This document shows, piece by piece, positions 17,647-54,793 of a stretch of 64,000 nucleotides of DNA (position 1 is its first letter; each line of letters begins with the position of its first letter). Under the pieces are notes generated by a model. That model made no database searches. It worked only from the letters and a program-made list of their open reading frames with translations, and was not told the origin of the DNA. Source of the stretch: Bacilli bacterium (lineage in GTDB: Bacteria > Bacillota_I > Bacilli_A > RFN20 > CAG-826); contig JAZQVN010000015.1 in the NCBI GenBank assembly GCA_045631885.1, positions 2,452 to 66,451 of the forward strand, given 5' to 3'. Made by a program: the position numbers and the translations under genes.

Positions 17647-17689
17647 AATTTAAAAGGGACCGATTTCTCGATCCCTTAATAATTCCTTC

Positions 17690-17765: not shown

Positions 17766-17768
17766 CTG

Positions 17769-35500: not shown

Positions 35501-35590
35501 CACGAGGATAAGGATAAGAGCCACTCCTGGAATTAAGAAAGAGAGGAAGAAGCTCGCGGACATTGAGATTTTTTTATTCTTTTTTGCCAT
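32537..35590 (-). CDS. Membrane protein with degenerate GGDEF, GAF-like and degenerate EAL domains (probable c-di-GMP receptor)
   Basis: 2 N-terminal TMs; C-terminal LQP..GAEILIR, FEITE, DQYSGEY (in place of DDFGTGY), VGVE, QGYHFYKP. Start MAKKNKK at 35590. Confidence 0.8.
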   Translation of the reverse strand: MAKKNKKISMSASFFLSFLIPGVALILILVGFVIFGYLHISTGNDIFLTIAGIYVLVLSLAYGVISIIIYFRLKETYVDGLYKTTSIMLRNFSNNIPTRASFPTNTRIDEFDKLNADLDNFNTIVSNATMISNDISKAYIPLNYISLEDKLVTLESFKSELRSLIYCSQNFRNVIIEVFYDLDEDTINEEESKRIISTLTLNFEEYPNILFIPNDNQTGFYVFLPRINSFSHIQERLTAAMKDLSIAKKTFDGLSTINARFSIVCYPYSNIDELFPDLQYAKRQGQLMNLYLPNRLTALSENLILQNSLNLNNMSRILGQLPELKVSSSEREASLNSMRNTFKDLITYLDIDFGGVITLDDVNDSYYSLLYISKDKEEVFKEGAMIDKNFVLAMEETKDPDDSCYFASRKHAGYKLAKFLDKINVSGGFYYLVHNQGNVVAVIYFFNKNKDLFIDSYIREAMFILSYRIGDFFMLSDDASKISEAYREINSVMMTSNYALYRIDRNTYDLTSFSQHFNAFFPKAKVGEKCFKALYGLDGVCQNCPLKTNKKMISETAHDMFETALTLNDSKQKLIRMFVRRLQKGEETTNRFDNDLLINSYYSLKLAIENLYTVNARGYLLVLRIDNHDAILAEAGSEGYLYLVRQFIKEIKGIRQQNANIFYFSPESIAILLPETGQIDIVNFIEKIYDVSKKYYQYNGVNYSFKGTYLPYSFPQQYANAEDFLKYTLRHFNSMDFVINEDKIDFPDSDYVRSASRNEFMLSVIEEQFGNKTFSVALQPMVRANDKSIYGAEILIRLSDNYRNSVFNADELIKVAAKNGKISLISNALINYIGELYQQHGLTIFKVFGFTRLTMNTDFSYFDDPGFFQSIFDLFNNYHLPRDFLGFEITEKEIYSHMDQFKGIARGILNHHIALIVDQYSGEYLSLEQVKSLGFTEIKIGRSLVGDIEVNPKHLAEITSLDKLSQEHDLKITFVGVENSDQYVLLRDMDKRCNCQGYHFYKPLDEYKLIEELRKNK

Positions 35591-35594
35591 ACTC

Positions 35595-36329
35595 TTACTC
35601 CCTAATAATGTCATTACGACCAATATCACCGATACAGGTAACAATCGCTCTACCGACCGCGGAATATTGTTTTAAAACATTGATATAACTATCCGCGTTA
35701 GATGGTTGGTCAATTTGATATTCGACAACTTTCACCGCGATAACCGGAATCGAGTGAATTGTCGCCGCTAAGAAGGCTCCACCACTTGTGCAATCGAAAA
35801 CGACATTAGTCTTATGTCCTAAGACATAATCGTTCATGATAAGCGGCATAATCTTATTAGTTTTATCTAAAATACCATTCGCTGAAATATATGTCGCGAC
35901 TTCGTATCTTGAGAAGCTTCTCTTTTCAAGTGCCGCGGAAATATAACCGATAACTTCATCTTGAGATTCTAATGATCTTGGTAAATGAGGTAATTGACCT
36001 AATTTCACATTAGCCTCTTTAACTTGGTCAACATCCCCTAAAATAACTCTACGAGAAATAACAATATCTCCTGGAAGAGTGTCTTTAGAATAAGAGACAC
36101 ATTTACCAACGACAAAGACTAACACGACGAAGTATTTTTGAATAATGTAATTAGTCACTAAAGAAGAAAGGTAAGAGGTGTATAAATCGTAAACTAAAGC
36201 AACTTCTTGGTTGAAGATGGAACCGTATTCCACTTTCACAAAACCAAAAATCGTATCATCTTTACGGTTAGTCATGACACTTTCGTAATACAAGATGTCA
36301 TCGTGTTTGGATCCGAGAATTAAGATCAT
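35595..36329 (-). CDS. MTA/SAH-nucleosidase-fold (PNP_UDP) protein with degenerate active-site motifs
   Basis: Length and pattern match MTAN (PGDIVIS...D, G..P), but the DME and ISD motifs are replaced by DCT and VVE. Confidence 0.6.
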   Translation of the reverse strand: MILILGSKHDDILYYESVMTNRKDDTIFGFVKVEYGSIFNQEVALVYDLYTSYLSSLVTNYIIQKYFVVLVFVVGKCVSYSKDTLPGDIVISRRVILGDVDQVKEANVKLGQLPHLPRSLESQDEVIGYISAALEKRSFSRYEVATYISANGILDKTNKIMPLIMNDYVLGHKTNVVFDCTSGGAFLAATIHSIPVIAVKVVEYQIDQPSNADSYINVLKQYSAVGRAIVTCIGDIGRNDIIRE

Positions 36330-37876
36330 TTTTCACCAGTCTCCTTTCTTTCAAATTGGTTACTGATAAGGAATTTTTCATATTCTTTATATGGCAAAGC
36401 CTGCGAATAGTAGAACCCTTGAATCGTATTACATTTTAATTTTCTTAAGATATCGACTTGTTCTTTGTTATCGACACCTTCAGCGATAACTTCTAGGTCG
36501 TTAGCGAGACATAATTCGATTAAGAATTTAACAATCGCTCTACTCTTTAAGTCAGTGACGATATCATCGATAAATGATTTATCAATCTTAACCGCGTCAA
36601 AAGGAATCTTTCTTAAGTTACCGATATTAGAGAAGCCAACACCGAAGTCATCCATTAAAACCCTGATACCTCTTTCTCTTAATTTCTTAATAATAGAAAT
36701 AGAGGTAAAGGCATTCGCTCTACTCGTCGCTTCAGTAATTTCAATTTCAATAAATGAAGGGTTGATATGATATGTATCTAAGATTTCCATGATGGAATTC
36801 AAGAATTCTGAAGAATAGAACTCATATAATGAGAAATTAATAGAAACTGGAATAATTCTTCTACCTTTTCTCTTCGCTTCGTTTAAGTCTTCACAAACTC
36901 GTTTAAAAACGAATGTATCGATTTCGTGAATTAAACCTGCGGTTTCAACGATTGGAATAAATTTAGAAGGAGGTAATAAACCATGTTTCTTACTATCCCA
37001 TCTAACTAAAGCTTCCGCGGAAATAAATCTACGGCTTTGTAAATTGAATTTTGGTTGATAGAAAACAACGAATTCGTTATTCTCTAACGCTTGAGTAATT
37101 TCATCGATATCTTCTTTGGAAGATCTTCTTCTGAATGATTCGTGATAATAAGTTAAAGTTTCGAAGTTTCTTTCAGAAACGTTTCTTGCGATACCAGCGT
37201 TTTCAATCGCCTCTAATAATGGGAGATCATCTCTCATTTCCGCGACACCAAAGAATGGTTGAACATAAATATGAATTTGATGTTTTTCTGCGATTTGGAA
37301 AATATTAGAGGAAATCTCATCGACTAATTTTCTAATATCGTGTTCATCATCAGTAAAGACATAAAGAAGGAACGCTCCACGATTGAAACAAGCGACACGG
37401 TCACTTCTTCTTCTCCTCTTCTTTTTATCAGTGTAATGGAGAATTTCTTTTAAATAAGAAGCGATTCTCGCATTTAATAATGTAATCGAGTCATCTCTAT
37501 TCGCGTTCTGCATTGTCACTAAGTTTGCCGCGGTTAAGGCGATGACATATTGTTTCTTTTTATTTAAACGTCTATTTTTCTTTAAAGCGAAAACTCTCGC
37601 AGAGAAAGCAGGAATACCAAAGAACGCGGTATTCTCACCTAAGTTATATAAGTTTTCACTTCTTAATGATTTAATTGATGTTGCGATGGATAAATATCTT
37701 GAGAAGAAATAGACATACAAGATAGATGTTCCAGGAATTAAGCTTAATAAAATAAAGTTAATGAAAATTGGCACATCAAGGCCAAGGGCTAAAATCAAAA
37801 TCAAAGCGACAAAGCTAGAAACGAAAATCGCACCTGAAATAATTGATAATATCAAATACACTCTTTTGTTTGGCAT
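36326..37876 (-). CDS. Membrane-bound degenerate-GGDEF / intact-EAL c-di-GMP phosphodiesterase
   Basis: YQPK, AEALVRW, EITE, DDFGVGFS, KIDKSF, AEGVD, QGFYYS. Confidence 0.9.
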   Translation of the reverse strand: MPNKRVYLILSIISGAIFVSSFVALILILALGLDVPIFINFILLSLIPGTSILYVYFFSRYLSIATSIKSLRSENLYNLGENTAFFGIPAFSARVFALKKNRRLNKKKQYVIALTAANLVTMQNANRDDSITLLNARIASYLKEILHYTDKKKRRRRSDRVACFNRGAFLLYVFTDDEHDIRKLVDEISSNIFQIAEKHQIHIYVQPFFGVAEMRDDLPLLEAIENAGIARNVSERNFETLTYYHESFRRRSSKEDIDEITQALENNEFVVFYQPKFNLQSRRFISAEALVRWDSKKHGLLPPSKFIPIVETAGLIHEIDTFVFKRVCEDLNEAKRKGRRIIPVSINFSLYEFYSSEFLNSIMEILDTYHINPSFIEIEITEATSRANAFTSISIIKKLRERGIRVLMDDFGVGFSNIGNLRKIPFDAVKIDKSFIDDIVTDLKSRAIVKFLIELCLANDLEVIAEGVDNKEQVDILRKLKCNTIQGFYYSQALPYKEYEKFLISNQFERKETGEK

Positions 37877-38811
37877 TATTTCTTTCCTTTCCGATTCATC
37901 ATCTCTTCTAACATCTCGCGTTTTAATCTCTCTTTATCCGCTTCGCTGAGTCCATCTAAAGAGCCACCAGAGGAACCACTTGAATTTCCTCCATTACTAT
38001 TATTATCACTCGTTGATGAATTTTCTTCATCAGGTTCTTTAATAGCTTTGAAAATATCTAAGACACTGGTGATAACTAAATAGAAGGCTGGGACTAATAA
38101 AAATACTAACAAACCCCATGGAGAAGAAATAAACCCAAAGAAGCCACCTAAGACATTACTTTTGATTTTAACAACCCCTAATAGCTCTTTTTCTGTAAAG
38201 GCTTGGTATTGACCAAATTGGGATTGGTGTTCACTGGCTCTATTGATACCAGCGACGATGAAGATGTATCTTCCGCTTCCTTCTTCTTTTTCTGGGTGAT
38301 ATTGAATTTCTTGAAGTCTGTGGGTAATGACTTGATTGATATTCATCGTTCTTTCATAGTAATCATGATTTTGTGGAGCGTCCGCTTGTCCGGAATAGCA
38401 ATCCATAAATGTCATATCAATCTTATTACCTTGTAAATAGGAATTATAAATGTCCGCTGGATTATCTTTATGGGTGATAATCGCAATACCAATTGGATAA
38501 GAATCGCTTTCATCAGTGACATTGACCATGGAGTCTGTTTGAATCACGAAACTACCATAGTTATAAGTGAATGTATGACCATAATTCTTATCTTTATCAA
38601 TCATGCCCATTACTTGGCCGATAGCGACGAAAAGGAAAAGCGCGGTGAAAAGACCAGTGATTGTCCATTCAAGAATAATACGAACTTTGCTCTTCTTTTT
38701 CTTTTTTGGTTCTTCACTAGTTGGTTTAACTTCTTGGGCTACTTCGGTTTCTTGACCGCTTAATCCAGGAACTTCTTCACTAACGACTTCTTTTTCTTCT
38801 TCTAACATCAT
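37876..38811 (-). CDS. SipW-like (ER-type Ser/His) signal peptidase I
   Basis: TM, then FVIQTDSM (Ser), VITHRL (His), LLGVV...LGGFFGFISSPWG, second TM. Confidence 0.75.
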   Translation of the reverse strand: MMLEEEKEVVSEEVPGLSGQETEVAQEVKPTSEEPKKKKKSKVRIILEWTITGLFTALFLFVAIGQVMGMIDKDKNYGHTFTYNYGSFVIQTDSMVNVTDESDSYPIGIAIITHKDNPADIYNSYLQGNKIDMTFMDCYSGQADAPQNHDYYERTMNINQVITHRLQEIQYHPEKEEGSGRYIFIVAGINRASEHQSQFGQYQAFTEKELLGVVKIKSNVLGGFFGFISSPWGLLVFLLVPAFYLVITSVLDIFKAIKEPDEENSSTSDNNSNGGNSSGSSGGSLDGLSEADKERLKREMLEEMMNRKGKK

Positions 38812-41717
38812 AATTTCACTACTTTACCACCAAATTGTTTTTTGATTTGATTTGCTTCGTTAAAATCATCGAATATATGAGCGTCATGTTTGGAATGAGA
38901 GTAATTTTCATTACCGACATAATATCCCATATTGGTTTTAACGATAAATTTACCAGGTATCTTTTCTAATACTTCTTCCTCTTCTTGAGGAACTGGCTCT
39001 TGAACTGGTTTTTTCTTTCTACCAGCGCCTGAACGAGCGCCACCCCAATTCTTCTTATTCGCGGATTCAGATTCTTCTACATCCGCTTTCTTTTTACGAC
39101 CAGCGCCTGCGCGGGAACCACCCCAATTCTTTCTAACAGGATGTTCTTCGTCTTGTTGATCGTTATCAGTTTCTTCGATTACTTTTTTCTTACGACCTGC
39201 ACCAGCGCGAGATCCTCCCCAGGACTTCTTCACTGGTTCAGCGTTATCTTCTTCTGGTTGTTCTTCAGAAACTTCCTCTATTGGTTCTTCTATATCTTGA
39301 GGTTCTTCCTCTATTGGTTCTTCCTCGATTGGAGCCTCTTCGATAACTGGCTCTTCTTCAATTGGGGTTTCCTCAATAATCGGTTGTTCTTCTACTGGTT
39401 GAACCTCCTCGATGATAGGTTCTTGTTCTTCGACGACTTCTTCATTTACAGGTTCTTCATCAGAAACTTTCTTCTTTCTACCCGCACCTGCACGAGAACC
39501 GCCCCAAGACTTCTTGACTGGTTGTTCTTCGTTAGATTCCTCTTGGGCCACTTTCTTTTTACGGCCTGCGCCTGAACGTGCGCCACCCCATGATTTCTTC
39601 ACAGGTTCGACTTCGTTATTTTCTTCAGCAGGAACTTCTTCAACTGGAGTTTCTTCTAGTTCTTGAGATTCTTCAACCGCTGGTTCTTCTTCGCTAACAA
39701 CTTCTTCTTCAACAGGAGATTCTTCCGCAGGAATTTCTTCTTCTACTGGTGGAATATCTTCCGCTATTTCAGGTTGTTCTTCTTCATTATTTTCAATAAT
39801 TGATGGGGTTTCTGCTGGAATTTCTTCGTTTTCTACAGGATTTTCGTCAATTTGTTCTTCTTGAATTGCGTCTTCGATTAACGCTCTTCTCGCTGCCTCT
39901 AGTTCATCTTCATTAGAAGGTTCTTCTTGAGGAGCTTCTTCAACTTCTTCAGAAGGTTGCTCGTCAACGATTTCTTCAACTGGTGATTCTTCTTCCGTTA
40001 GAGACTCTTCGATGGTTTCAGGTTCTTCAACTTGAGCCTCTTCGACTGGGTGAACTTCTTCTTCGATAGGAGCTTCCTCTACTTGTTGAGGTTCTTCAAC
40101 GGCAGGTTGTTCTTCCTCGACTGGAGCTTCTTGAACTTCTTCAACAGGGGTTTCTTCTACACCTTCCTCAACTGGTGATTCTTCTATTTCTTCGCTAACT
40201 TGTCCTTCTGAAATAGTTTCTTCAACCACTTCTTCTTGAGGTTGTTCTTCAGAGATTTCTTCCTCTTCAATTGGAAGTTCTTCGTTATATTCGGCTTCGT
40301 AATAATCATCAATAGTTGGGAGATCTTCTACCTCTGGTCTACTAACTGGAGATAATTCTTCAACTGGGTGATTAGATAAAGCTTCTTCGATGAGTTGTCT
40401 TCTAACATCATCAATTCTTCTTTCTTCAGCGAGTCGAATAGCTTCTTGTTCTCTAGCGATTCTTTCCGCTTCTTCTCTTTCTCTTTGAGCGATAATTGCT
40501 CTTGCTCTTTTATCAAATTCCGCTTTATCTTTTCTCTTGCGTTTTTCTAACTTATCTAACGCGGCTTTTTCCACTTTACGGATATTCTTTTCTTCGATTT
40601 CTTCTTCGTAATATTCTTTCTCAATCTTAGTTGGGTGAGGTGGAATATCTTTCTTTAATTGAGAATCGAGATAATCTTGATATCCTTGGTCAATACGTAA
40701 AAATTCGATTGGACCTTTTAATAAGTCACCATAGATAAATTCCTCATCATCAAGTGAGGTAAGTATTCTTGGTTTATATGTACGAGAAAATCCCTTCGTG
40801 GTGACGGATTTGCTCTTACCTTTTAAGGCTAAATAGTTTGTGAACATCACTGTGTTGAGTTCATTTAATTCTTCATCAGTGAAAATAGAGGCATCTTCAT
40901 CAATCTTGAAAGACACACCTAAATGGTCATATCTTTCTAAGAATTTATATAAACGATAACAGTGGTTATATTTTGGGTTCTTTCTTAGGATGTTAGTCAT
41001 GACGATTGGATTACGGACATCTCTTTCTGTCTTTAATTCCTTCATGAACTTAGAACCATAAAAATACATAACGTATTCTCTAATCTTTAAAATACGTTCA
41101 ACCGCTTTATTGGACATATCCGCGGCTTTCGTGTCGGATGGAGATTTGACTTTGATCTTAGTTTCAATTTCAACTTCCGCGCCTTCCACCATCGCTTTGG
41201 TTTTATAATATAAAATTTCTTCATCGTGTAAGATGGAGAAGTTTTTGACGAATTCATATCTCTTTTGAATGAATAAAACTAATCTTCTTACTAAAGTAGC
41301 AATAAATCTATTTTCATAAGTATGAATATCTTCTTCACTACCGATATTTAAGATTTTATTAGGAACGACGTCTCCGTCTTCTTTAACTTCTTTGATGTAT
41401 TGGGTGTGGCTTGCTAAATGTTGAACAGATTCAGCACCTGTTTTTCTCGCTAATTCGACAGGGACAATATTTGTCACTGTTTTTGTAGTTTCTCTCGGAT
41501 TAGCGATAATTTCACCTAAATCATAAATACAATCTTCAATCTCTTTAATCCATGAGAAATCGAAGTTAGAGTTTTCTAATCGGTCAATTCTCATGTAAGA
41601 GTTTTTGCCACTAGAAAGAGACGCGAAAATCTCGGAGGCTCTTTTCTCCTTTTTAATGGAGTCCATCTTTCCGAGATATTTTTTAAATAACGCTGCGTTC
41701 TTTCTGTTATCGGCCAT
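38808..41717 (-). CDS. DUF2357 (McrC-type N-terminal) protein with a coiled coil and an acidic disordered tail carrying 5 WGGxRxGAGRKKK repeats
   Basis: IIxNPR, SVQHLASH, TYENRF, TNILRKNPKY..CY.LY.FL; no PD-(D/E)xK nuclease domain recognisable. Confidence 0.75.
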   Translation of the reverse strand: MADNRKNAALFKKYLGKMDSIKKEKRASEIFASLSSGKNSYMRIDRLENSNFDFSWIKEIEDCIYDLGEIIANPRETTKTVTNIVPVELARKTGAESVQHLASHTQYIKEVKEDGDVVPNKILNIGSEEDIHTYENRFIATLVRRLVLFIQKRYEFVKNFSILHDEEILYYKTKAMVEGAEVEIETKIKVKSPSDTKAADMSNKAVERILKIREYVMYFYGSKFMKELKTERDVRNPIVMTNILRKNPKYNHCYRLYKFLERYDHLGVSFKIDEDASIFTDEELNELNTVMFTNYLALKGKSKSVTTKGFSRTYKPRILTSLDDEEFIYGDLLKGPIEFLRIDQGYQDYLDSQLKKDIPPHPTKIEKEYYEEEIEEKNIRKVEKAALDKLEKRKRKDKAEFDKRARAIIAQREREEAERIAREQEAIRLAEERRIDDVRRQLIEEALSNHPVEELSPVSRPEVEDLPTIDDYYEAEYNEELPIEEEEISEEQPQEEVVEETISEGQVSEEIEESPVEEGVEETPVEEVQEAPVEEEQPAVEEPQQVEEAPIEEEVHPVEEAQVEEPETIEESLTEEESPVEEIVDEQPSEEVEEAPQEEPSNEDELEAARRALIEDAIQEEQIDENPVENEEIPAETPSIIENNEEEQPEIAEDIPPVEEEIPAEESPVEEEVVSEEEPAVEESQELEETPVEEVPAEENNEVEPVKKSWGGARSGAGRKKKVAQEESNEEQPVKKSWGGSRAGAGRKKKVSDEEPVNEEVVEEQEPIIEEVQPVEEQPIIEETPIEEEPVIEEAPIEEEPIEEEPQDIEEPIEEVSEEQPEEDNAEPVKKSWGGSRAGAGRKKKVIEETDNDQQDEEHPVRKNWGGSRAGAGRKKKADVEESESANKKNWGGARSGAGRKKKPVQEPVPQEEEEVLEKIPGKFIVKTNMGYYVGNENYSHSKHDAHIFDDFNEANQIKKQFGGKVVKL
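39008..39602 (-). repeat. Five intragenic repeats encoding (K/R)K(S/N)WGG(A/S)R(S/A)GAGRKKK
   Basis: Visible directly in the translation of 38808..41717. Confidence 0.9.
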
Positions 41718-41722: not shown

Positions 41723-43240
41723 TTAGTTATTCTTAATCAAATCTTCGATATATCTATGCGCCATTGGGAAAGTATTCTTTCCGTATAATTTATCTAATTG
41801 GCCAGATAATTCTTTTAATTCATCTTTGAAGAAGGCGATGTTTAAAGATTCAAATTTCTTTAAAATCTTGTTTGTAAAGATGAAGTCGAAACCATCACTT
41901 TCTTTACCACCACAGGCGACAAAGACAGGGATGAATGATTCTAATTGTTTTAAAATACGGTTACCAAAGGCTAACTTGAATTTCTTAATGACGAAGTTAT
42001 CTAATTGTGAGAATTTGTCTAACATATTGTCACTAATTGGGAATTGGTTAATCGCTTCATCATATAAGCTCTTAAGTTGAGCGTATGGAACTTGTAAAGC
42101 TTCTTGTCTTTCACTTTCAAATGGACGACCTTTATCGTCAAAGAATAATGAAATAGCACGGTCATAGACCTTATCAGAGATGGTGAATGTACTATCATCG
42201 TTATTGGCTGTGCCGAAGAAGATGACGTTTTGAGGAATTAATAATTTACCATCTTTTAATTGTTGAGGGTCACCGTTTTGCATCGCCGGAATTAAGTCGA
42301 TTAACCAGTCGGCGACATCTCTCATTTCCATGACGGATAAGAATTCCGCGAAATAGTATTCGATACGGGCTAAGTTCATTTCATCGAGGACGATGACATC
42401 TAATTCTTTACGATATGTGGTTGTGTATAACGCTCTTAAGAATTCAGATTCATTGAATTTCTTAGTAAATTCATTGTAGTAACCTAATAATTCAGATCTA
42501 TCTTTCCATGATGGTTGAACTGGAATAATTGCTGAGTCAAAAGCGAAGAATTTACCTAAAGCATACGCCATAGAGGTTTTACCTGTACCGGAGATACCTT
42601 CTAAGATAATTAACTTAGAGGTAGCCATACCGGCGAATAATTGTCTAATGGTTTCAATCTTGTAATACAAGTTATATTGGCTTGCAGCAAAGTTTCTAAA
42701 GGCATTACATAGTTCTTCTAAAGAGAGGTTTTCTTTATAAGGAATTGATAAGTCAACACCTCTATATTGGTTGTCCACTTTGACGAGTTTTGGGAATCTT
42801 GAAGAGATTTCTTCGATAACTTCTTTATCTTCTTTCTTCATCTCATCTGGGGAGATACCCATATAAGCTGTTTTTAAATTTAAAATCTTGTCTTTTTCCG
42901 CGATGGCTTGGAATAATTCGTAATTTAATCTTTCAACTTGTTCTCTTAATTCATCTTTGTCTAATTCTTTTCTGACAAATCTGATGTATTTTCTGATGAA
43001 CAAGACTAATAAAAAGATAATTCCACCTATCGCACCGACAAGTAATAGAGCAAATAAAACAAAGAAGAACCAACCGAGGAAACCAAATTGGCCAGAGTTT
43101 TCAGAAAGGAAAGAATTGTATGCTTCAAAATTACCTGGAACATCCGCCCAAGGTTGAGCCCAAGCTTTATTTAAAAATGTGCCGATATCAGCAAAAATTC
43201 TTGTGACTAATTCTCGTAAATATTCGAAATATGCATTCAT
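41723..43240 (-). CDS. Membrane-anchored McrB-like AAA+ NTPase
   Basis: N-terminal TM and coiled coil; Walker A GISGTGKT; VQPSW.D; Walker B LDEMNLARIEYYF; GTANNDDST; KVYDRA. Confidence 0.85.
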   Translation of the reverse strand: MNAYFEYLRELVTRIFADIGTFLNKAWAQPWADVPGNFEAYNSFLSENSGQFGFLGWFFFVLFALLLVGAIGGIIFLLVLFIRKYIRFVRKELDKDELREQVERLNYELFQAIAEKDKILNLKTAYMGISPDEMKKEDKEVIEEISSRFPKLVKVDNQYRGVDLSIPYKENLSLEELCNAFRNFAASQYNLYYKIETIRQLFAGMATSKLIILEGISGTGKTSMAYALGKFFAFDSAIIPVQPSWKDRSELLGYYNEFTKKFNESEFLRALYTTTYRKELDVIVLDEMNLARIEYYFAEFLSVMEMRDVADWLIDLIPAMQNGDPQQLKDGKLLIPQNVIFFGTANNDDSTFTISDKVYDRAISLFFDDKGRPFESERQEALQVPYAQLKSLYDEAINQFPISDNMLDKFSQLDNFVIKKFKLAFGNRILKQLESFIPVFVACGGKESDGFDFIFTNKILKKFESLNIAFFKDELKELSGQLDKLYGKNTFPMAHRYIEDLIKNN

Positions 43241-43260: not shown

Positions 43261-44382
43261 TTATTGACCAGTGTGCTCAGCAATCTTGAAGTTGAGTCTC
43301 ATATCGAAGCTTCCACCCATGTGGGAGTTGATACAATCCATATCCCAACCTTCCATATAAATCGCTAAGACGAATTCTTTCATTTCTCCACCTTTGACTT
43401 GAAGGCTGAACTTATCTTCAACCTCTGCTCTTGCTAATGAATCTTCTTTTTTAATCTCTAAGCCGTTTTCTAAAGATTCATCAAGTAAGAATGGGTGGAC
43501 ACCCGCTTTGGTTTTCGCGGCGAATGAAGTATATTCTTTTGGAGCCTCGCTATCAGTATCACTGGCTTCGCCATATACCGCGAGGTTTCTATCATTTACT
43601 TCACCATATATTACTTCGTAATACTCATCATCAGTATCATTTCGATATGAATCATAATATGTCGTTGAAAACAAATCTTCTCTTCCTCCAAGGAGTGTTT
43701 CTTTATCCTTGTAAGGATCAATTACTGTGAATTGATATGTTTCTTCATCCGGATCTAATATTGCAATACGCATACAATTGGTTAAGTTGTTTAATTGTTT
43801 AATTACATCTTCAACGATTTCTTCGTGAGTGTATTCCGGATGTTCAACTGCGTATTTTTCTTTGATACCTTCAGTATCCGCGAGCATCCTCGCTCTTTGT
43901 TCATTTAATCTTCTAATTGGAGAGATGAATAAGTTTTCTTCGGATGCATCGAGAGTAACTTTTGTATCGGCATTACAATATAAATATAAATGCTGGGTGT
44001 AATAACCCCAGTTTGACACACGCTCCCTAGGCGCGCGCGTTAAAGAATCAACTAGTGCGGAATCGTATTCATAGAATACTGGGTCACTAGCTTTCTCGTC
44101 TATCCATTTTGATTTAAACATCGTACTTATCGGTTTAAATAAATCTGTTCCCGGTAGTTGCGATTCTGGATCGTCGAAGTTGAATTTAAGTGTTTCCGTT
44201 AATGCACTATACTCATTTGTGGTCGCAATTCTTAATTCACGAGACCCAGAAACATTAATAACTAATGTATCAATGTATAAATTCTCAGAGGAATTATACC
44301 AAGCAAAAGACAAAGATAAGCTCAACGCCGCTAAGCCAATTGAGCCTACTAAACTTGTAGTAATGAGTCTTTTAAAGTTCAT
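43261..44382 (-). CDS. SipW-type signal peptide fibre subunit (TasA/CalY-like)
   Basis: Signal peptide ending LSFA/WYN; CMRIAI; C-terminal IYMEGWD. Confidence 0.7.
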   Translation of the reverse strand: MNFKRLITTSLVGSIGLAALSLSLSFAWYNSSENLYIDTLVINVSGSRELRIATTNEYSALTETLKFNFDDPESQLPGTDLFKPISTMFKSKWIDEKASDPVFYEYDSALVDSLTRAPRERVSNWGYYTQHLYLYCNADTKVTLDASEENLFISPIRRLNEQRARMLADTEGIKEKYAVEHPEYTHEEIVEDVIKQLNNLTNCMRIAILDPDEETYQFTVIDPYKDKETLLGGREDLFSTTYYDSYRNDTDDEYYEVIYGEVNDRNLAVYGEASDTDSEAPKEYTSFAAKTKAGVHPFLLDESLENGLEIKKEDSLARAEVEDKFSLQVKGGEMKEFVLAIYMEGWDMDCINSHMGGSFDMRLNFKIAEHTGQ

Positions 44383-44387
44383 AATTC

Positions 44388-45569
44388 CTAACTGACTAAG
44401 TTAATCTGGAATTGTAGTCCTAAGTTAAAACCGTGCGATAATTCTTCGTCGATAACAGTATGATCCCAACCTTCGAGCCAAATCACGGCATCGAGTTCCG
44501 CTAAAGCGTTAGTGTCTTCCGCGGTAACACACACAGGTGTACCACCACTTAATCTACCATTAACGTCATTTGGAGCGATTGTTTTCAATGTTTTATATTG
44601 AGCTGTGCCTAAAGTAAGGCCAGTATAGTCTTCATAACATGTATTGCCTCTACCATGCTTTGCATAAAATGTAGAGTGTTCGGTTGATTTGGCGATAACG
44701 CCATCAAAAACAACACCATTGATGTTTTCTAAACCACTATCACTAGATGGGTTTTGTGTAAAAGTATTAGTTCCAGAACCAGTGTAATCACCATAAATGA
44801 TTTCTTGATGTTCATCATCAAAATCATAAAGTTCATCTCTGTTTAAATCTAAACAGCCAGCAACTGTGGTAACACCATCGATATTACCGGTATCGCTTGG
44901 ATTTAAAATGAATTTATTTGCTGTGCTAGAACTTGAGAAATAAACTCTAATTCCCTTATAAACTTGAGAATCAACATTAGTAGAGCTAGCGGCAACATCA
45001 ACATCACTTAACCATAAGTTTTGTCCACCGACATATTCCTTAGTTGAGCCAGATGTTGGCTTGATGATTCTAAATACAAATGGAATTGAAACATATTTAA
45101 ATGTTTCAGCATCATTTTCATTAACTCTACTTCCCGCAACTAATGTGTTATAAAGATTGAAATTATTAGCACCAGTCACATAAGTGCGACTTGTAACAGG
45201 ACACAATTCAGTTGTCGCATAAGTACCTTCTTGAGCAAGATATGTAGAAATCGCATTGGCTGGTAATCCACCGCCTGGCTCAGCAAAATAATATCTGATT
45301 GTCTTGCCATCTTCGACTTTGGTTAAGTTATTGTCGATTGTTAATCCAACACCGGTTAGTGCTGCCATTTGATCACTATCGAAGTCGGTAGTTTTCAAAC
45401 CGATTTGTAATTGAGCACTTGTGGTAACGGATGTACCTTGGTAAGACACAGAGACTCTTGTTGAATAAGCCCACCAAGCCATAGAACCGCTAATTGAACC
45501 CACAAAAGCTGCGAGTGTAACTAAGCCAATTCCGACTGGTAATAAACGCCATTTCATATTGGTCTTCAT
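44388..45569 (-). CDS. SipW-type signal peptide fibre subunit
   Basis: SISGSMA/WWAYSTR; LCPVTS; GIRVYF; IWLEGWD. Start MKTNMK at 45569. Confidence 0.75.
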   Translation of the reverse strand: MKTNMKWRLLPVGIGLVTLAAFVGSISGSMAWWAYSTRVSVSYQGTSVTTSAQLQIGLKTTDFDSDQMAALTGVGLTIDNNLTKVEDGKTIRYYFAEPGGGLPANAISTYLAQEGTYATTELCPVTSRTYVTGANNFNLYNTLVAGSRVNENDAETFKYVSIPFVFRIIKPTSGSTKEYVGGQNLWLSDVDVAASSTNVDSQVYKGIRVYFSSSSTANKFILNPSDTGNIDGVTTVAGCLDLNRDELYDFDDEHQEIIYGDYTGSGTNTFTQNPSSDSGLENINGVVFDGVIAKSTEHSTFYAKHGRGNTCYEDYTGLTLGTAQYKTLKTIAPNDVNGRLSGGTPVCVTAEDTNALAELDAVIWLEGWDHTVIDEELSHGFNLGLQFQINLVS

Positions 45570-45609
45570 GCGTGTTTCCTTTCTTTTTATTTTTTTAATA
45601 GATTTTTTT

Positions 45610-45650
45610 GCCAAGGGCAAAGTCGCGCTTACGCGATATTGCCCTTAGCA
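45610..45650 (-). terminator. Intergenic hairpin (attenuator or mRNA stabiliser) after the 45683 subunit
   Basis: AAGGGCAA-aGTCGCG-ctta-CGCGAT-ATTGCCCTT inverted repeat. Confidence 0.5.
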
Positions 45651-45682
45651 TTGTCGTATCTATTTTTTGTGTTTACTAAAGA

Positions 45683-46816
45683 TTAATGATTTTCGTGAGC
45701 TTCAGCTGAGAATCTGATGCCAACGTTGAATTGAGCACCAATTGTGCTATCTGTAGTGTTGGAAGAATTCCATAAAGCACTACCACCGAGTTGTTGCCAA
45801 CCTTCGAGATAAATAACTAAGTCGACTTTTAAAGTATTGGAAGCAGTAGCTGTACCAATTGCAGTACCGGTAATGTCATATGGATCACTGTCATCAGCAA
45901 CACCGAGAACATCACTTGTAACTGGTGTAATAGCGGTTGATTCTGCGACTGGAATTTCATATTCTTCCCAAGAAGAACCATTGTATTGATAGAACTTGTC
46001 ACCTGTGACGTAAGCGATATCATCAGCAGCGGCTTCTAAAGCATTTCTGGCTTCTTCGTTAGCGACTTCAACGAATGATTCGCTTGTACCATAAAGAATT
46101 TGTTTGCCAGATTGCCAACTGAATGTATTTGTTTTGTCCATTTGGCTGTCATTATTTAAGTCTAAAGCACCAGCAACTTCAACATCATCACCTGTTTTGG
46201 AGAATGTTGCGTATTGTGTTAATGCGTTTGCATCTGTTCCTGCGCTAACGCCTAAACGTAAAGCGTTGGAAACATCAGCTCTAGCTGGGTTTGTGGTTTC
46301 TGCTTCTAAAGCAACTGCGGAAACATAAATGTCCTTTTCTAACATAGTGACATTTGCTCCACCATCGACGTCTTTAACACGGAGTTCTAATGGAATGACA
46401 ACATAATCTTCAGTGGCTGTTGCTGCACCCCATGTAGATTGAGCACCGTATTGATAAATTGGGTTTCTGTAAAATGTGGATGCGACTTCGCCTTCAGCTA
46501 ATTCACCAGAAGTAACTGGATGTAAATCAGTTGCGTTGTTACGTTCTGCACCACCGCTAGCGATTTCTGTTGTTAAATAAGATGCGATTACGCTAGCTGG
46601 TAAATCACTTCTCCAACCAAATGTGGCTTCATCACTACTTCTAACTCTAATTTCTAAAGCTTCTGTACAGTGTGCGGCTGTACCAGTGAATTCAGCTGTT
46701 GCACGTGTGGAATATTGATACCACGCGACAGATCCTGAGATTGATCCTGCTAAAGCAGCACCCATCGCAAGAGCTAATGTCGAAACTATAATTTTCTTTT
46801 TATTACTTGTTTTCAT
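45683..46816 (-). CDS. SipW-type signal peptide fibre subunit
   Basis: SISGSVA/WYQYSTR; LHPVTSG; ALRLGV; IYLEGWQ. Confidence 0.75.
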   Translation of the reverse strand: MKTSNKKKIIVSTLALAMGAALAGSISGSVAWYQYSTRATAEFTGTAAHCTEALEIRVRSSDEATFGWRSDLPASVIASYLTTEIASGGAERNNATDLHPVTSGELAEGEVASTFYRNPIYQYGAQSTWGAATATEDYVVIPLELRVKDVDGGANVTMLEKDIYVSAVALEAETTNPARADVSNALRLGVSAGTDANALTQYATFSKTGDDVEVAGALDLNNDSQMDKTNTFSWQSGKQILYGTSESFVEVANEEARNALEAAADDIAYVTGDKFYQYNGSSWEEYEIPVAESTAITPVTSDVLGVADDSDPYDITGTAIGTATASNTLKVDLVIYLEGWQQLGGSALWNSSNTTDSTIGAQFNVGIRFSAEAHENH

Positions 46817-47621
46817 AAGCGTTAATTGTAACTCCTAATTTTAGATTTGCACCTTCAGGTGCTTCACCTTGTGCTTGAGGATCATTACCCTCGAGCCAAG
46901 CGACTATTGTGTATCTTTTAGATTCACCTGGTAAGAAAGTTGGATCTGGAATTGTCGCAACTACTTCTGGACTTTCGAATGGTTCCGCAAACGCTGGGAA
47001 TGGATTTGTCGCAGAATCGAACCCATAAGACAGGTATTCTTTATACGTTGTGTCTCCATAACCGGTTTGATTTGGGGTTTCACTCTTTTTCGCGTACACA
47101 GTGTACTTGTGTTCGTCTATAGTTGGATCATTCTGATAAACCATAACTCTGAGAATTTGATCTAGGTATCTGATACCGTATCTGTCAGAGATAGCTGGTT
47201 CATTCTTCGTGATGTTGACTTTTACTTCGTAATTAGCTGGTATTGAACCATCATTTTTAATGAAGAATGTGTACTTGAAGTATTTCATTACTTCATTACC
47301 GAAGCTGTCTTTTTCAACTCCGTAATCCACACCATGTTTATCATTATCGATGTTCTCGCTTGATGGAAGCCTTTCGTAGGTTTCTAAATCAAATGGCGGT
47401 AAGGTATCGATTTTGATGTAGGATGTTGGATCTTCGAATTGAGAAGTCTTATAAAGTGATAATTTAACGGATCCGGTATTTAACGCGACTGTAAATGTGC
47501 CTGTGTACTTACCAAGAAATGCTACCAGGACAAACATTCCAATACCTGCAGATGCAACTGCTGTAAGGATTCCTGCTAGTTTTTTTCTTTTCCGTTTTTT
47601 TACATACTCCAATTCGACCAT
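46803..47621 (-). CDS. Fibre-subunit paralogue with an N-terminal membrane anchor
   Basis: KKRKRKK followed by a TM; YTFFIKNDG; ILRVMV; IVAWLEGNDP. Lacks the A/W cleavage signature. Confidence 0.65.
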   Translation of the reverse strand: MVELEYVKKRKRKKLAGILTAVASAGIGMFVLVAFLGKYTGTFTVALNTGSVKLSLYKTSQFEDPTSYIKIDTLPPFDLETYERLPSSENIDNDKHGVDYGVEKDSFGNEVMKYFKYTFFIKNDGSIPANYEVKVNITKNEPAISDRYGIRYLDQILRVMVYQNDPTIDEHKYTVYAKKSETPNQTGYGDTTYKEYLSYGFDSATNPFPAFAEPFESPEVVATIPDPTFLPGESKRYTIVAWLEGNDPQAQGEAPEGANLKLGVTINAYENK

Positions 47622-47680
47622 AGATGAATTTTTTGCCCTAAAAGATCAAAGGGCGATAATTTGTCCCATGGAACTGATAC

Positions 47681-47809
47681 AAAAAGCCAGTGCCTATCAT
47701 CCAATACATTGGCGGGATTGTTCAGTCCCTAAGGCAACTGGCTATCTTATTATAATAAGACCCTTTAGTTTTGCGACCTCATATTGCTATGAGTGTGCTT
47801 TTTTCTCGC
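47681..47809 (-). promoter_or_regulatory. Cyclic-dinucleotide riboswitch class I (GEMM-I), A20 variant, with terminator expression platform
   Basis: GCGA...AAAAAAGCACACTCATA-GCAA-TATGAGGTCGCAAAACTAAAGGGTCTTA...TAAGATAGCCAGTTGC. The aptamer 3' end can pair with AGGCACTGGCT, which is followed by TTTT. Confidence 0.85.
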
Positions 47810-47813
47810 ATAC

Positions 47814-47843
47814 ATCCTAACACAACTAGTCAAATCGTGTCAA
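47814..47843 (-). promoter_or_regulatory. Sigma-A promoter of the fibre operon
   Basis: TTGACA-18-TAGGAT with TG extension, immediately upstream of the aptamer. Confidence 0.7.
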
Positions 47844-47959
47844 CCCCTTCTTTTTTTATTATAAAAAAACATAAATTAGTCATTTCAAAATATTTAGAAC
47901 GAATCAATAAAAAACCACTTTTTGTGGTAAAAGGTAAAAAAATAACAACCAATCGGTCG

Positions 47960-48549: not shown

Positions 48550-49527
48550 TTATGCAGTAACAGCAGCACCTGTTCTTGCGTAGAATTTCATAGATCCTTC
48601 AATTTCGTAAATATCATTTGTTGAAAGAACGTTTTCATCAGAACCTTCTAACCAAGCAACAATTGTAACTGTTAATGTAACTTGATCACTTGCGTTTTTG
48701 TTCTTATAAAGAACAGTGCCTAAGTAATCAGCACGATCATCAGCTGTTGAAGTGGCTAAGCCATCAACGGCTAAACCACTAGTGAGTGTTGAGTTGTTTG
48801 TAGCATAATCGTTAGCGATTAAAACGGAATCTGAATAAGTTGAATATGTAGATGCTCCACCAGCATATCCTTCACATTTTGCTTCTGTTTCCATTGGAGC
48901 CCAAACTTTTTTGGCGGTTGGAGAAGCGGCAGGAGCAAGCATAGCGAATCTCATACCTTTAGAAACGCTTGCGGTTCCAGAGTTGTCTGTAAGTTTATCG
49001 CCATCAGCCATTGTGGAATTAACTTCATCAAAGAAGATATGGACATCGTGGTCGTCACCACCGAATGTGTATGTAATTTGAACATCCCATGTAACTGCAT
49101 AATAATATGCGTTTGTAGCAGTTGAACTAACTTTATAGTTAGCAGAAGTGCGAGATCCGTCTGTGCCTACTGCAACGAAAGATGTTTTATTAACGCCAGA
49201 AGCAGCTTCACTAACTGCAGCGTTGTCTGTGTATAAAACATCATTAACATGATCATATGAAGCATCTGTTAAGATAGCTTTATCTGAACTGCCAGCATTC
49301 CAGAATTGAATCATATCATTTGTGTTGGTCTTTGTGCCGGCCTTTGTACCAATGCCAGCGACACAAACTGCAGATAAGTTACCATCAACAGAGCCAACTG
49401 TGAATTTATCAACAAATGTATTGTATGTTCTATTCGCGGTGAACCATGCAACGGTACCGGAGACTGAAGCAGCGGTTGATAAGAGCAATAAGCCAAGAGC
49501 AGGAACTATAATTTTTGATTTTTTCAT
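48550..49527 (-). CDS. SipW-type signal peptide fibre subunit (probable major subunit)
   Basis: SVSGTVA/WFT (GTxAWF signature); GMRFAM; IVAWLEGSD; strong SD AAGGAG; own promoter and terminator. Confidence 0.8.
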   Translation of the reverse strand: MKKSKIIVPALGLLLLSTAASVSGTVAWFTANRTYNTFVDKFTVGSVDGNLSAVCVAGIGTKAGTKTNTNDMIQFWNAGSSDKAILTDASYDHVNDVLYTDNAAVSEAASGVNKTSFVAVGTDGSRTSANYKVSSTATNAYYYAVTWDVQITYTFGGDDHDVHIFFDEVNSTMADGDKLTDNSGTASVSKGMRFAMLAPAASPTAKKVWAPMETEAKCEGYAGGASTYSTYSDSVLIANDYATNNSTLTSGLAVDGLATSTADDRADYLGTVLYKNKNASDQVTLTVTIVAWLEGSDENVLSTNDIYEIEGSMKFYARTGAAVTA

Positions 49528-51016: not shown

Positions 51017-52105
51017 TTAATCATCTTTGAATACGATGCAATTTTTGCCTTTGCCTTTAGCCCTGATGGCTTGCATATCGGCTTCGTTGAATATCTTTTC
51101 AAAGTCAAAATCTTTATCAACAGTGTAATAAGCTAGACCAATGGAGATTGTCACGCCATTTTTAATTCCGGCAACACTTGTTAATAAGTAATTAGCCTTT
51201 GCGACTAGTTCATCTCTAGTGAGATTTCTTTCAACAATTGCGAATTCATCCCCACCCCATCTCGCACATAAGGCGTGTGGGATTTCATTTAACTTCTTTG
51301 CGACCTCAATTAAGATTTCATTTCCGACTGTATGACCATATTTATCGTTATAAATCTTAAAATCATCAATATCGATAAACATTAGCCCAATAGTTTCACC
51401 TTCTTGAACTGTTAGATTGAGATTATTCACATAACTTAAATAATAAGCTTGGTTTTTTAAACCCGTGACGCTATCGGTGTTTGCATCTTGATAGTAGATG
51501 TCTTTAATTTTTTCTAATTTCTTAACAATCGTGCCATTAATTAAAGATAATAAATAACCAATAAGCGTGCACATTGAGTAATACAAAACTAATAATGCTT
51601 TCTTGACCCAGTCGTTTTCACTACCTGCCGCTCCTCTAGTTAAATTGCTAATCGGAGGAACAGCAAAAATGAGAACCATTATTGCTAATAAAGTAAGTGA
51701 TGCGATTAGTCCTTTCTTATGTCCAAAGAATAAACACAAGAAAATAGGGGCAATATTAATCCAGAATAAATAGATGGTATATGATGGAGCAAAGAAGACA
51801 TATAAAATCGATAAGGACATTATCAACAGCGTAGTGATGACTTCAAAAACGATTGTTTTGGAAACCTTGTTTTTTCTGAACATCACTATCTCCACGATTA
51901 ATAAAGCAATAAAGGCCACTAGATAAGAGGCGGCGATAATACCTAATTCAATTTCGTTATTGATGAAGTTAATAATCGTACAACCAGTACCGATAAGGGA
52001 AAAGATAATTGAAGTTAAAACCAAAAAAGTCTTAGTCCTACTGTTATGATCAATAAGGTTAAGCGTGGCGTTATTCCATTTTTCACTGATTTTACTTTTT
52101 CCCAT
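51017..52105 (-). CDS. Multi-TM diguanylate cyclase (GGDEF)
   Basis: TDSVTGL, DIDDFK.YNDKYGH, RWGGDEF, TISIG, AD...AK..GKN. Confidence 0.92.
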   Translation of the reverse strand: MGKSKISEKWNNATLNLIDHNSRTKTFLVLTSIIFSLIGTGCTIINFINNEIELGIIAASYLVAFIALLIVEIVMFRKNKVSKTIVFEVITTLLIMSLSILYVFFAPSYTIYLFWINIAPIFLCLFFGHKKGLIASLTLLAIMVLIFAVPPISNLTRGAAGSENDWVKKALLVLYYSMCTLIGYLLSLINGTIVKKLEKIKDIYYQDANTDSVTGLKNQAYYLSYVNNLNLTVQEGETIGLMFIDIDDFKIYNDKYGHTVGNEILIEVAKKLNEIPHALCARWGGDEFAIVERNLTRDELVAKANYLLTSVAGIKNGVTISIGLAYYTVDKDFDFEKIFNEADMQAIRAKGKGKNCIVFKDD

Positions 52106-53347: not shown

Positions 53348-54793
53348 TCACTCGGCAATTGAATTACCGAGCATCTGGGTTGCATATTGGTTGATGATAT
53401 CTTCCAATATATATCCATCTGGGTAGTTCCTACCCGATATCCCTACGTTACCAGCCTTACCATTCCAATTTTGGTAATCTTCATTTAAAAACTGGTCTGT
53501 TACAGGAATATATTCTCTTCTTGGGTTAGATAATCCTTTAATAGGCGTATCAAAATCTAGAGAGAAGTTTTGTCGATATAATCTCATGATGTTAAATGCC
53601 CCGACTGCATCTGCATTATAGATATCGTTACCATCCATAAATAAACCACGATGTTTTCTTTTCGATTTATCATAATAATCTTTTGATACTGTTAATGATT
53701 TAGGAGAACATCCAGAAGAATATGCTTCATCGATGATAATTAGTTCAACTCCTTCTTTTTTGAGCTTATAGGAAAGATATTCATAGATTCTAGCAAAGCA
53801 TATAGCTCTCATATTCTGGTTATATCTGTGCTTATCTTTGTTAGAATTAAACTCTTTCTTTTGATGAAGGATACCCGTGACATCTCCAATGATCACTTTA
53901 GAGATATCATGATTGTTACAGTAGTTAACAATATATCTAGAGGCACGATGGAGGATGAGATTAATCCTTTTATTCTTAAGTTCATATAAATGTTTAATCT
54001 TATTAGTAGAGACTCCTTTCTTATGGTTAGGAAAACACTTATCATATATCGACTGATAATAAGCAATTCTTTTAGAGAAATAATAAGAAGTGTTTTGGAT
54101 TGAAGCTCCTGAGACAATAAATGAATATCCGTTATTGTCATAGACTGTTAACAGGTTCTTACTTCCAATATCAATGCTTATATAATGCTTATTATCTTCT
54201 TTTAATGATTTAACTTCTTCTTCATAGATGATATAGACTTTATATCTATTCTTATCCATATACACGAATTCCACTTGTTTAATAATAGAGAAAGTTCTTT
54301 TTAGAGGAATATAGAAGAAATCTTTTTCGATATTATATTTTTCTTTTAGATGCTGTTTAAGCCTACTAGGAATAGAAAAGCGGATTTGATTACTAGTAAC
54401 CTTAATAGAATTTTGAAGGTATTTAAAAGAAGTATGGGAGCCATCTTTCTTATAATAAGGGGAGTGTGGTTCTCCTTCATATTCTTTTAAATGTCCTTTT
54501 TCTTTCCTATATTCATATCTACTCTTAAGAGCGAAATAACTCTTCCAAGCTTCACTTAGCCTAGCAAGGACATCTTGACTGGTTTGGGCAGGTAAAGATT
54601 TATACCAGATATTATCCTTTAATCTTTTCTTTTGATCATACCAGTCTGGAATAGAGACAAATCCAAGACTTTTATATTCTTTTCTTTCATAATTACCAAC
54701 GTTGAATAATTTAGACGCTGCATAAGAAAGATGTCCAAGAATGATGGACAATTTCTCGTCTACTTTCAATTCAAATTGGTAAGTTAGTAGCAT
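53348..54793 (-). CDS. tnpB: RNA-guided endonuclease TnpB
   Basis: Helical N-terminus (LPAQTSQ..L...AWKSY); RuvC motifs ISIDIG, IIGD / IDEAYSS, NADAVGAFNI. Confidence 0.9.
   Translation of the reverse strand: MLLTYQFELKVDEKLSIILGHLSYAASKLFNVGNYERKEYKSLGFVSIPDWYDQKKRLKDNIWYKSLPAQTSQDVLARLSEAWKSYFALKSRYEYRKEKGHLKEYEGEPHSPYYKKDGSHTSFKYLQNSIKVTSNQIRFSIPSRLKQHLKEKYNIEKDFFYIPLKRTFSIIKQVEFVYMDKNRYKVYIIYEEEVKSLKEDNKHYISIDIGSKNLLTVYDNNGYSFIVSGASIQNTSYYFSKRIAYYQSIYDKCFPNHKKGVSTNKIKHLYELKNKRINLILHRASRYIVNYCNNHDISKVIIGDVTGILHQKKEFNSNKDKHRYNQNMRAICFARIYEYLSYKLKKEGVELIIIDEAYSSGCSPKSLTVSKDYYDKSKRKHRGLFMDGNDIYNADAVGAFNIMRLYRQNFSLDFDTPIKGLSNPRREYIPVTDQFLNEDYQNWNGKAGNVGISGRNYPDGYILEDIINQYATQMLGNSIAE

Follow-up and report, generated by a model that had tools for sequence, protein, structure and literature searches.

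The Aptamer and a Promoter-Like Site

This analysis concerns a 64,000-nucleotide (nt) stretch of DNA, referred to here as the window, from the genome of an uncultured Bacilli bacterium (GenBank assembly GCA_045631885.1, contig JAZQVN010000015.1, positions 2,452 to 66,451), and within it an RNA element of the GEMM-I (c-di-GMP-I) riboswitch family that precedes an operon of at least eight genes on the minus strand. All positions are those of the window unless another contig or locus is named. The genome (G000) is assembled into 40 contigs totaling 1.51 Mb; its G+C content is 35% and its estimated completeness 94.85%. We consider it probable that the element is an ON switch for an operon encoding a surface fiber, and that the signal it reads is most likely cyclic di-GMP (c-di-GMP).

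The aptamer (47809-47730, minus strand) matches the Rfam model RF01051 with 63.4 bits against a gathering score of 35 (E 4.7e-10; cmscan in gathering mode), and the alignment spans model positions 1-87 of 87. A preliminary description of the locus, made from the sequence letters, had proposed a c-di-GMP-I covariance model as a check of the assignment, and this full-length match bears it out. The sister model RF03167 (c-di-GMP-I-GGC) stays under its cut-off of 59 with 57.7 bits. In the RF01051 alignment, base 47799 is an unpaired A at model position 11, preceding the G-C that opens the first hairpin (P2), and the loop of this hairpin is a GCAA tetraloop (47787-47784) of the GYRA type, both as the description had it. 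By our own count of the consensus, model position 11 equals the ligand-contacting G20 of Vc2, the prototype of RF01051 from Vibrio cholerae. The other ligand-contacting positions are kept, A47 as the A at 47772 that follows the closing GC and C92 within the 3' GCC at 47735-47733, and A at position 20 (A20) is a known natural variant. The second hairpin is short, and the tetraloop-receptor positions of the model appear as alignment gaps there. Together with a GCAA loop, such a receptor-less hairpin presumably represents the "type 2" form of the aptamer. Compared with Vc2, the two-hairpin architecture, the GNRA loop and the A47 and C92 positions are shared, whereas the A at position 20, the GCAA loop, the deleted receptor positions and the terminator-based ON switch are different. 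Judged by score and architecture, the element is a genuine member of the GEMM-I family.

Another 36 loci have the same element ahead of the orthologous gene, which makes it more than a chance match. These loci derive from a search of a species-representative genome collection with an alignment of five first-gene orthologs, which returned 37 loci. One of them (L113) holds only the last 114 bases of the gene and was left out, so that 36 loci and the window give 37 leaders for comparison. The records that carry the orthologous operon are labeled as metagenome-assembled genomes (MAGs) of uncultured Bacilli, Erysipelotrichaceae or Mollicutes, and most of them originate from samples of rumen and gut.

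A promoter-like site lies immediately upstream of the aptamer (47814..47843, minus strand). It consists of TTGACA (47843-47838), an 18-nt spacer and a TG-extended TAGGAT (47819-47814) with 10 of 12 consensus matches, and it predicts a start at about 47808-47806, at the 5' edge of the aptamer. A similar -35/-10 pair at the same distance was seen by eye in six of six orthologous leaders, and a terminator-like hairpin (47928-47914) ends the gene upstream of the riboswitch. The conserved promoter-like pair and this hairpin suggest that the riboswitch heads a transcription unit of its own.

The Aptamer Shares a Strand With a Predicted Terminator

The 3' strand of the aptamer, AGCCAGUUGCCU (47743-47732, minus strand; t5), is complementary to AGGCACUGGC (47695-47686; t3) except for one bulged U, and UUUUU (47685-47681) follows directly. 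The segment 47681..47695 therefore has the composition of the 3' strand and tail of an intrinsic terminator, and the 12 nt of t5 are common to its stem and to the aptamer. Folded alone, 47745-47681 adopts this helix with -22.8 kcal/mol, which none of 200 dinucleotide shuffles equals, and the minimum free energy structure of the whole leader also includes it (-56 kcal/mol, z -2.57). Between the two strands of the stem lie two small hairpins (47729-47714 and 47712-47701). That the aptamer 3' strand can alternatively pair downstream, in a terminator incompatible with the aptamer, had been proposed from the window sequence, and the shared nucleotides, the fold and the comparison below speak for it; the tail, earlier given as U4, is in fact U5.

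The arrangement is conserved. In 34 of the 37 leaders the same order occurs, namely the aptamer 3' strand, a variable insert, an anchor of the GAUGAUAGG type, the 3' strand, a U-rich tract, a further segment E and the motif GGGA(C/U)A. The remaining three (L095, L097, L109) fall outside the parse patterns, with an AGGC...U-run element still visible by eye. Since the variable arms came out misaligned when the expression platforms were aligned with MAFFT, the comparison relied on anchored segments and on duplex energies. While t5 is nearly invariant in the 34 leaders, the t5:t3 duplex has a mean energy of -17.6 kcal/mol over 30 distinct leaders, and t5 pairs better with its own t3 (-17.57 kcal/mol) than with those of other leaders (-16.80 kcal/mol; 0 of 5000 permutations as good). 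The sole variable base of t5 (U/C) faces A/G accordingly, and by eye a change from U-A to C-G is seen in L078, L083, L087, L088 and L107; in L079, L080 and L101 this base is bulged (by eye).

The wiring as a transcriptional ON switch, as suggested in the preliminary description, is well supported by this anatomy and by the comparison of leaders with its compensatory change, and it has the status of a prediction from sequence. Since the terminator anatomy competes with the aptamer, ligand binding should allow read-through. In four bovine-gut RNA runs from two studies, short contigs cover the leader and the first gene and are mostly 90-95% alike, indicating an origin from relatives. Among them, a 105-nt contig (X12, record 16) stops at 47682 within the U tract, although contigs cannot show RNA ends and such libraries may contain DNA.

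Some relatives carry more elaborate leaders. In L086 (~5760-5960), L096, L099, L100, L093 and L028 (G023), a complete aptamer has its own small terminator (GCCAGCAACCUCAAUUG...CAGUUGAGGUUUU) and is followed by a second copy of the aptamer 3' strand only (AGAUAGCCAGUUGCC) and by the usual branched terminator. The L093 leader carries a tandem pair of full aptamers.

A Second Covarying Helix Downstream of the Terminator

The aptamer is followed immediately by an 11-nt segment B, GGGACUGAACA (47729-47719, minus strand), which can pair either with UCCC (47717-47714) to form hairpin 1 inside the terminator loop or with a 12-nt segment E, UGUAUCAGUUCC (47681-47670), whose first base is the final U of the U tract. 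B and E differ widely among the 30 distinct leaders, yet B is matched to E within each leader: B:E averages -10.6 kcal/mol with the own partner, compared with -5.5 kcal/mol with the E of other leaders and -4.95 kcal/mol with shuffled E (0 of 10000 permutations as good). In the window, the segment 47731-47660 folds with -21.3 kcal/mol, a value that 4 of 200 shuffles reach. The small hairpin of B with UCCC covaries as well (0 of 5000 permutations).

Because E is transcribed past the termination point, B:E is possible only in the read-through RNA. Topologically, it crosses the terminator helix and abuts the weak P1 of the aptamer. Our best guess is that B:E keeps the full-length RNA anti-terminated.

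Downstream of E follows UGGGACA (motif F, 47662-47668, minus strand), which is present as GGGA(C/U)A in 34 of 34 parsed orthologous leaders. Across the window genome, TGGGACA is not enriched (102 occurrences against about 97 expected). Between motif F and the start codon, a third hairpin (GCCCU...AGGGC, 47635-47654, minus strand) is predicted by folding, and most orthologs have a hairpin of other sequence at this place (read by eye). The 15 nt before the ATG at 47621 contain no obvious Shine-Dalgarno or other purine-rich site. For pairing of E, B or t3 with the stretch leading to the start codon, no covariation was seen (999, 3524 and 2124 of 5000 permutations as good, respectively). An E-value search of 47560-47860 against Rfam returned nothing credible besides the aptamer, and the downstream part matches no family. 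The second covarying helix is a feature that standard riboswitch models do not explain.

Other roles for these segments were considered and dropped. Motif F does not mark the start of a conserved small open reading frame (ORF), and neither a sigma-70 nor a sigma-54 site fits (by eye). A pairing of CAUGGG with the start codon region is predicted in the window and not kept in other leaders (by eye). The layout of motif F and hairpin 3 recalls a protein-binding site made of a linear box and a hairpin; no partner was found, and no CsrA gene was found in the window genome at its estimated completeness of 94.85%.

The Downstream Operon

Downstream of the riboswitch, at least eight genes follow on the minus strand throughout, with small gaps or overlaps. 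The first four (46803-47621, 45683-46816, 44388-45620 and 43261-44382; together 43261..47621) are paralogs and encode putative TasA-like fiber subunits. Each has an N-terminal membrane or signal segment ending in a G-S-x-A-W-Y-like motif (G-x-x-A-W-Y) and a C-terminal (W/Y)(L/M)EGxD motif. None of the four matches a Pfam or NCBIfam family, Peptidase_M73 of Pfam included. In an atlas search, the second gene fell among unnamed clusters, the nearest named one being Peptidase_M73 at 0.78, below lead level. A structural model of the first protein built on 33 orthologs reached a pLDDT (predicted local distance difference test) of 88.6. In a VIA search, its top match was the TasA fiber (8aur_A; Z 7.3, root mean square deviation 3.4 A, 140 aligned residues); matches are distinctive from Z 8, so this one lies within the common range. 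Foldseek gave E values of only about 1e-3 to donor-strand pilins (FimA), archaeal bundling pili (7ueg) and TasA (8aur; E 6e-3).

The next genes encode an AAA_5 ATPase (41723-43240; 27.3 bits) and a 969-amino-acid (aa) protein with a weak match to DUF2357 (38808-41717). For this pair a McrBC-like restriction module was considered and dropped, since both genes keep their place in the fiber operon in four relatives. They are followed by a candidate SipW-like signal peptidase of 311 aa (37876-38811). Its NCBIfam match (NF046067, E 5.9e-05) has 22.7 bits, far under the cut-off of 190, and there is no Pfam match; DSM (Ser) and THR (His) motifs were seen by eye at what we take to be the positions where SipW-type enzymes carry Ser and His. 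The last tightly coupled gene of the cluster (36326-37876), which overlaps the preceding one by 1 base, encodes a 516-aa membrane protein with an EAL domain (234 bits) in which the EAL, DDFGVG, EGVD and QGF motifs are present. EAL is a c-di-GMP phosphodiesterase domain; Pfam itself describes the family merely as "EAL domain". The gene order of the operon recurs in the related genomes G001, G002, G016 and G024, and in G002 and G024 a protein of matching length, judged by length and position alone, occupies the place of the EAL gene.

After the operon follow a PNP_UDP_1 phosphorylase-family gene (35595-36329, minus strand) and a gene for a 1035-aa protein with a C-terminal EAL domain (32537-35644, minus strand). 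No strong terminator pattern was found on the minus strand between the riboswitch (47681) and 32460, and these two genes may share the operon transcript up to the pattern at 32460-32439. A fifth paralog of the fiber family, with a GTVAWF signal and a WLEGSD motif, lies upstream of the riboswitch (48550..49527, minus strand) and has its own terminator-like hairpin (48528-48507).

We tentatively interpret the operon as a TasA-like, SipW-dependent fiber system with extra parts. The comparison is with tapA-sipW-tasA of Bacillus subtilis, which shares the combination of a SipW-like peptidase candidate with secreted proteins and, for the one modeled protein, TasA as top match, both being weak matches. 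In contrast to that operon, the present one has four to five paralogous subunits, an AAA+ ATPase, the 969-aa protein and an EAL enzyme, and is under predicted riboswitch control. In Bacillus, control lies with the repressor SinR. Among the best matches of a literature search, no c-di-GMP riboswitch before SipW/TasA genes was found, which is not proof of absence from print. The operon probably builds a surface fiber in an uncultured, small-genome lineage that is common in ruminant guts, and the analysis names both a regulator and a likely signal for this conserved operon, which is almost without family annotation.

Adenine and Guanine Alternate at Position 20

Among 36 orthologous leaders, position 20 is A in 32 and G in three and is cut off in one; seven of the A calls were made by eye where the pattern had failed or anchored wrongly. 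Only purines thus occur in the 35 assessable orthologs. The ortholog in G026, which belongs to a different family, has G. A tree of first-gene sequences places all three G copies within a clade of six that also holds A copies at short distances, and three changes are needed. The same mixture is seen among all GEMM-I elements: the 30 matches listed for 41 related genomes comprise 16 with A, 13 with G and one unclear (our reading). In G002, homologous adhesin-type genes are preceded by riboswitches with G20 in some cases and with A20 in another. The window genome itself has three GEMM-I matches, the A20 copy of the window and two G20 copies on contig C28. Such easy exchange of A and G would be expected if both states serve the same signal. 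Judged from these sequence counts, A20 is the norm for this riboswitch in the lineage and not a rare change of specificity.

Three genomes (G012, G014 and G020) have a GEMM-I match and no GGDEF domain at E <= 1e-5, and their riboswitches may be orphans or decaying. The aptamer of G020 (96% complete) reads GACUCAAAAC where others have GACGCAAAAC.

Cyclases and Phosphodiesterases in Riboswitch-Bearing Genomes

The base-contacting residue was read in all GGDEF domains that were found across 13 genomes carrying the riboswitch. The window genome has nine intact GGDEF domains, seven with Asp, one with Asn and one with Cys at this residue, and none of the nine has the Ser or Thr of the Hypr signature. 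It also has six EAL and two DAC domains, and the SMODS model PF18144 gave no match at its estimated completeness. The GEMM-Ib class, described from Geobacter, is associated with a known cGAMP synthase (a Ser/Thr Hypr GGDEF or a DncV/CD-NTase) in the host; neither kind was found here with these models. In five relatives with A20 copies, G022 (98% complete), G036 (99%), G026 (95%), G006 and G001, all intact GGDEF domains are of the Asp type, and SMODS had no match in any of them.

Two variant GGDEF families depart from the Asp type. The first is represented in the window by a MASE6-GGDEF protein (51017..52105, minus strand) with an intact GGDEF motif and the sequence GHTVGN, which places Asn at the guanine-reading position (D344 of PleD, S348 of GacA). 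The Asn is retained in positional counterparts in L078 (53% identical; ~3023-4099), L080 (26%; ~3800) and L087 (22%; ~3800), so it is not a random lesion. Members of this family always lie a few kb upstream of the fiber operon, and the motif is AGDEF in L080. In G002 (92% complete), the Asn type is the only intact GGDEF found, and this genome has two A20 and two G20 riboswitches. As the sole intact GGDEF found in a genome with G20 riboswitches, the Asn-type enzyme is suggested to make at least c-di-GMP. The best matches of a literature search included no report on Asn variants of GGDEF. All four Asn-type neighbors adjoin A20 copies, as might be expected with A20 in 32 of 36 leaders, and other A20 loci have Asp-type neighbors. 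An association of Asn-type GGDEF with A20 was tested and gave no significant result. The second family, YGHR(F/Y)G(C/A)HL with an intact (H)xGGDEF, has Cys or Ala at the base-reading position and occurs in G000 (C35:92653-93108, minus strand), G016 (C4:126157-126606) and G024 (C79:25669-26115).

Proposed Mechanism and Ligand

Combining these observations, we propose the following mechanism. Transcription would start near 47807. Without ligand, 47743-47732 would pair with 47695-47686 and RNA polymerase would terminate at U5 (47685-47681). With ligand bound, the aptamer would keep its 3' strand and block the terminator, allowing read-through into the operon of at least eight genes, and in the read-through RNA the helix of 47729-47719 with 47681-47670 would form beside the aptamer. 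The products would be four TasA-like secreted fiber proteins, the AAA+ ATPase, the large protein, the SipW-like peptidase and the membrane EAL phosphodiesterase. As an enzyme that may degrade the inducer would be placed under the inducer's own riboswitch, the terminal EAL gene would give a simple loop of negative feedback.

The physiological ligand is likely c-di-GMP, given the published affinities of A20 aptamers, the exchange of A and G, the cyclase census and the EAL gene in the operon. The G20A variant of Vc2 binds c-di-GMP with 53 nM and cGAMP with 120 nM, and for Cbe 1-2, a natural A20 aptamer from Clostridium beijerinckii, the values are 30 nM and 463 nM, respectively; strong cGAMP selectivity is confined to the aptamers of Geobacter (PMC6140456). 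A20 in the window is expected to keep c-di-GMP binding via a protonated adenine, as in other A20 aptamers, perhaps at lower affinity and with cross-binding of cGAMP in vitro. Cbe 1-2, likewise an A20 aptamer of a Firmicute, appears to be the best available proxy for the behavior expected here; the likeness is drawn from the base at position 20 and not from sequence, and the host and the controlled genes differ. The earlier suggestion that the ligand may not be only c-di-GMP is compatible with the published bispecificity of A20 aptamers, while a dual or cGAMP signal in vivo seems to us rather unlikely. The Geobacter GEMM-Ib riboswitches (Gs1761 before pgcA, and Gm0970) share with the present element the A20, the ON logic and a terminator competing with the aptamer. 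They differ in that the host here is an uncultured gut and rumen member of the Bacilli with Erysipelotrichaceae-labeled relatives, in which no Ser/Thr Hypr GGDEF or SMODS match was found, that the orthologs alternate between A and G and that an EAL gene lies in the controlled operon. Outside Geobacter, position 20 of GEMM-I consequently does not appear to be a reliable predictor of the ligand: in this lineage A is the majority state, alternates with G and occurs together with only Asp-type GGDEF domains found.

Several observations count against c-di-GMP as the sole signal. SMODS is only one CD-NTase model and the genomes searched are incomplete MAGs. The Asn-type GGDEF lies just 3.2 kb upstream of the riboswitch and is kept in three other loci, the Cys/Ala family occurs in three genomes, and intact GGDEF domains other than Asp are present in four of nine A20-bearing genomes read compared with none of four G20-only genomes, albeit in small numbers and related genomes. 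They would fit an unlikely alternative, in which the riboswitch senses 3',3'-cGAMP or a mixture of c-di-GMP and cGAMP made by the neighboring, Hypr-like Asn-type GGDEF, with the G20 copies reading c-di-GMP. In Geobacter, A20 is needed for cGAMP recognition by GEMM-Ib and is the single change that switches an aptamer between cGAMP and c-di-GMP selectivity, A20G reversing it (PMC6456294), and Gm0970 is about 1600-fold selective for cGAMP (PMC8835794). The intact motif with Asn replacing the guanine-reading Asp, kept down to 22% identity, argues for selection, and by our own chemical reasoning an amide side chain could in principle hydrogen-bond the Watson-Crick edge of adenine or guanine. The window genome has A20 and G20 copies before different surface-protein genes, and in G002 a promiscuous Asn-type enzyme could feed both classes. 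However, the known Hypr signature at this residue is Ser/Thr and not Asn (PMC6456294), and an Asn-type neighbor accompanies only four of the 37 leaders, other A20 loci having Asp-type ones. A20 copies also occur in the relatives with only Asp-type intact GGDEF domains and no SMODS match, the Asn-type enzyme of G002 must make c-di-GMP if it is to serve the two G20 riboswitches there, and A and G alternate among near-identical leaders. The EAL domain in the operon points the same way; to our knowledge, the characterized cGAMP phosphodiesterases are HD-GYP proteins (V-cGAPs). A broader version of this idea, which we regard as speculative and doubtful, is a Hypr-like pathway outside Proteobacteria, in gut and rumen Bacilli, where Asn-, Ala- and Cys-type GGDEF proteins make 3',3'-cGAMP or a mixture, A20 riboswitches read that signal to control the TasA-like fiber, G20 riboswitches read c-di-GMP, and B:E with GGGACA forms a new post-termination layer. 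If true, the A20 riboswitches, about half of the lineage's GEMM-I copies, would switch on TasA-like fiber assembly in response to it.

The ON-switch part of the proposed mechanism also has evidence on its other side. The promoter scan found three sites against 2.7 expected in shuffles, which is not significant alone; the insert enclosed by the terminator stem is branched and, at 36 nt, unusual for intrinsic terminators; and a simple terminator scan with a loop limit of 8 did not list this terminator. One may ask whether a real aptamer here acts without termination, the t5:t3 and B:E helices acting instead on the processing or stability of the RNA or on translation of the first gene. Such a role would accommodate the branched insert in place of a small loop, the covarying helix, the GGGACA motif and the further hairpin after the U tract, none of which a pure terminator switch needs, as well as the lack of a purine-rich ribosome-binding site near the first ATG. 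We nevertheless hold it to be quite improbable, because 34 of 37 leaders keep a G+C-rich stem base that runs directly into a U-rich tract, which is the anatomy that defines an intrinsic terminator, and because E, B and t3 show no covariation with the region up to the start codon and no Rfam family matches the downstream part. That the element is a decaying or non-functional copy with an unconstrained position 20 is very improbable. The toggling between A and G among close relatives could be read in this way, but the full-length score lies far over the cut-off, conservation extends to the other positions of the pocket, to both helices and to the terminator although the first gene is only 31-55% identical, and position 20 is always a purine where it could be assessed.

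Relative to a routine GEMM-I riboswitch, the c-di-GMP-responsive ON switch proposed here is somewhat unusual in its controlled operon, in the predicted, built-in EAL feedback and in the covarying post-terminator helix with its GGGACA motif. Two objects for the bench are offered by the locus, the Asn-type GGDEF and the covariation-supported helix downstream of the terminator.

Further Features of the Genome and the Window

The two G20 riboswitches of the window genome lie on contig C28 (98327-98407 and 92298-92375, minus strand). They are near-identical, and each has a competing terminator. Each precedes a pair of genes for proteins of 355-378 aa and 1444-1488 aa with the same SipW-like N-terminal signal, G-T-F-A-W-F.

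In the window, just upstream of the GGDEF neighborhood, a TnpB-like ORF of 481 aa (53348-54793, minus strand) has OrfB_IS605 and Cas12f1-like TNB domains. Three consecutive tRNA genes (RF00005, 52.6-70.4 bits) are located at 17565-17843 on the minus strand.

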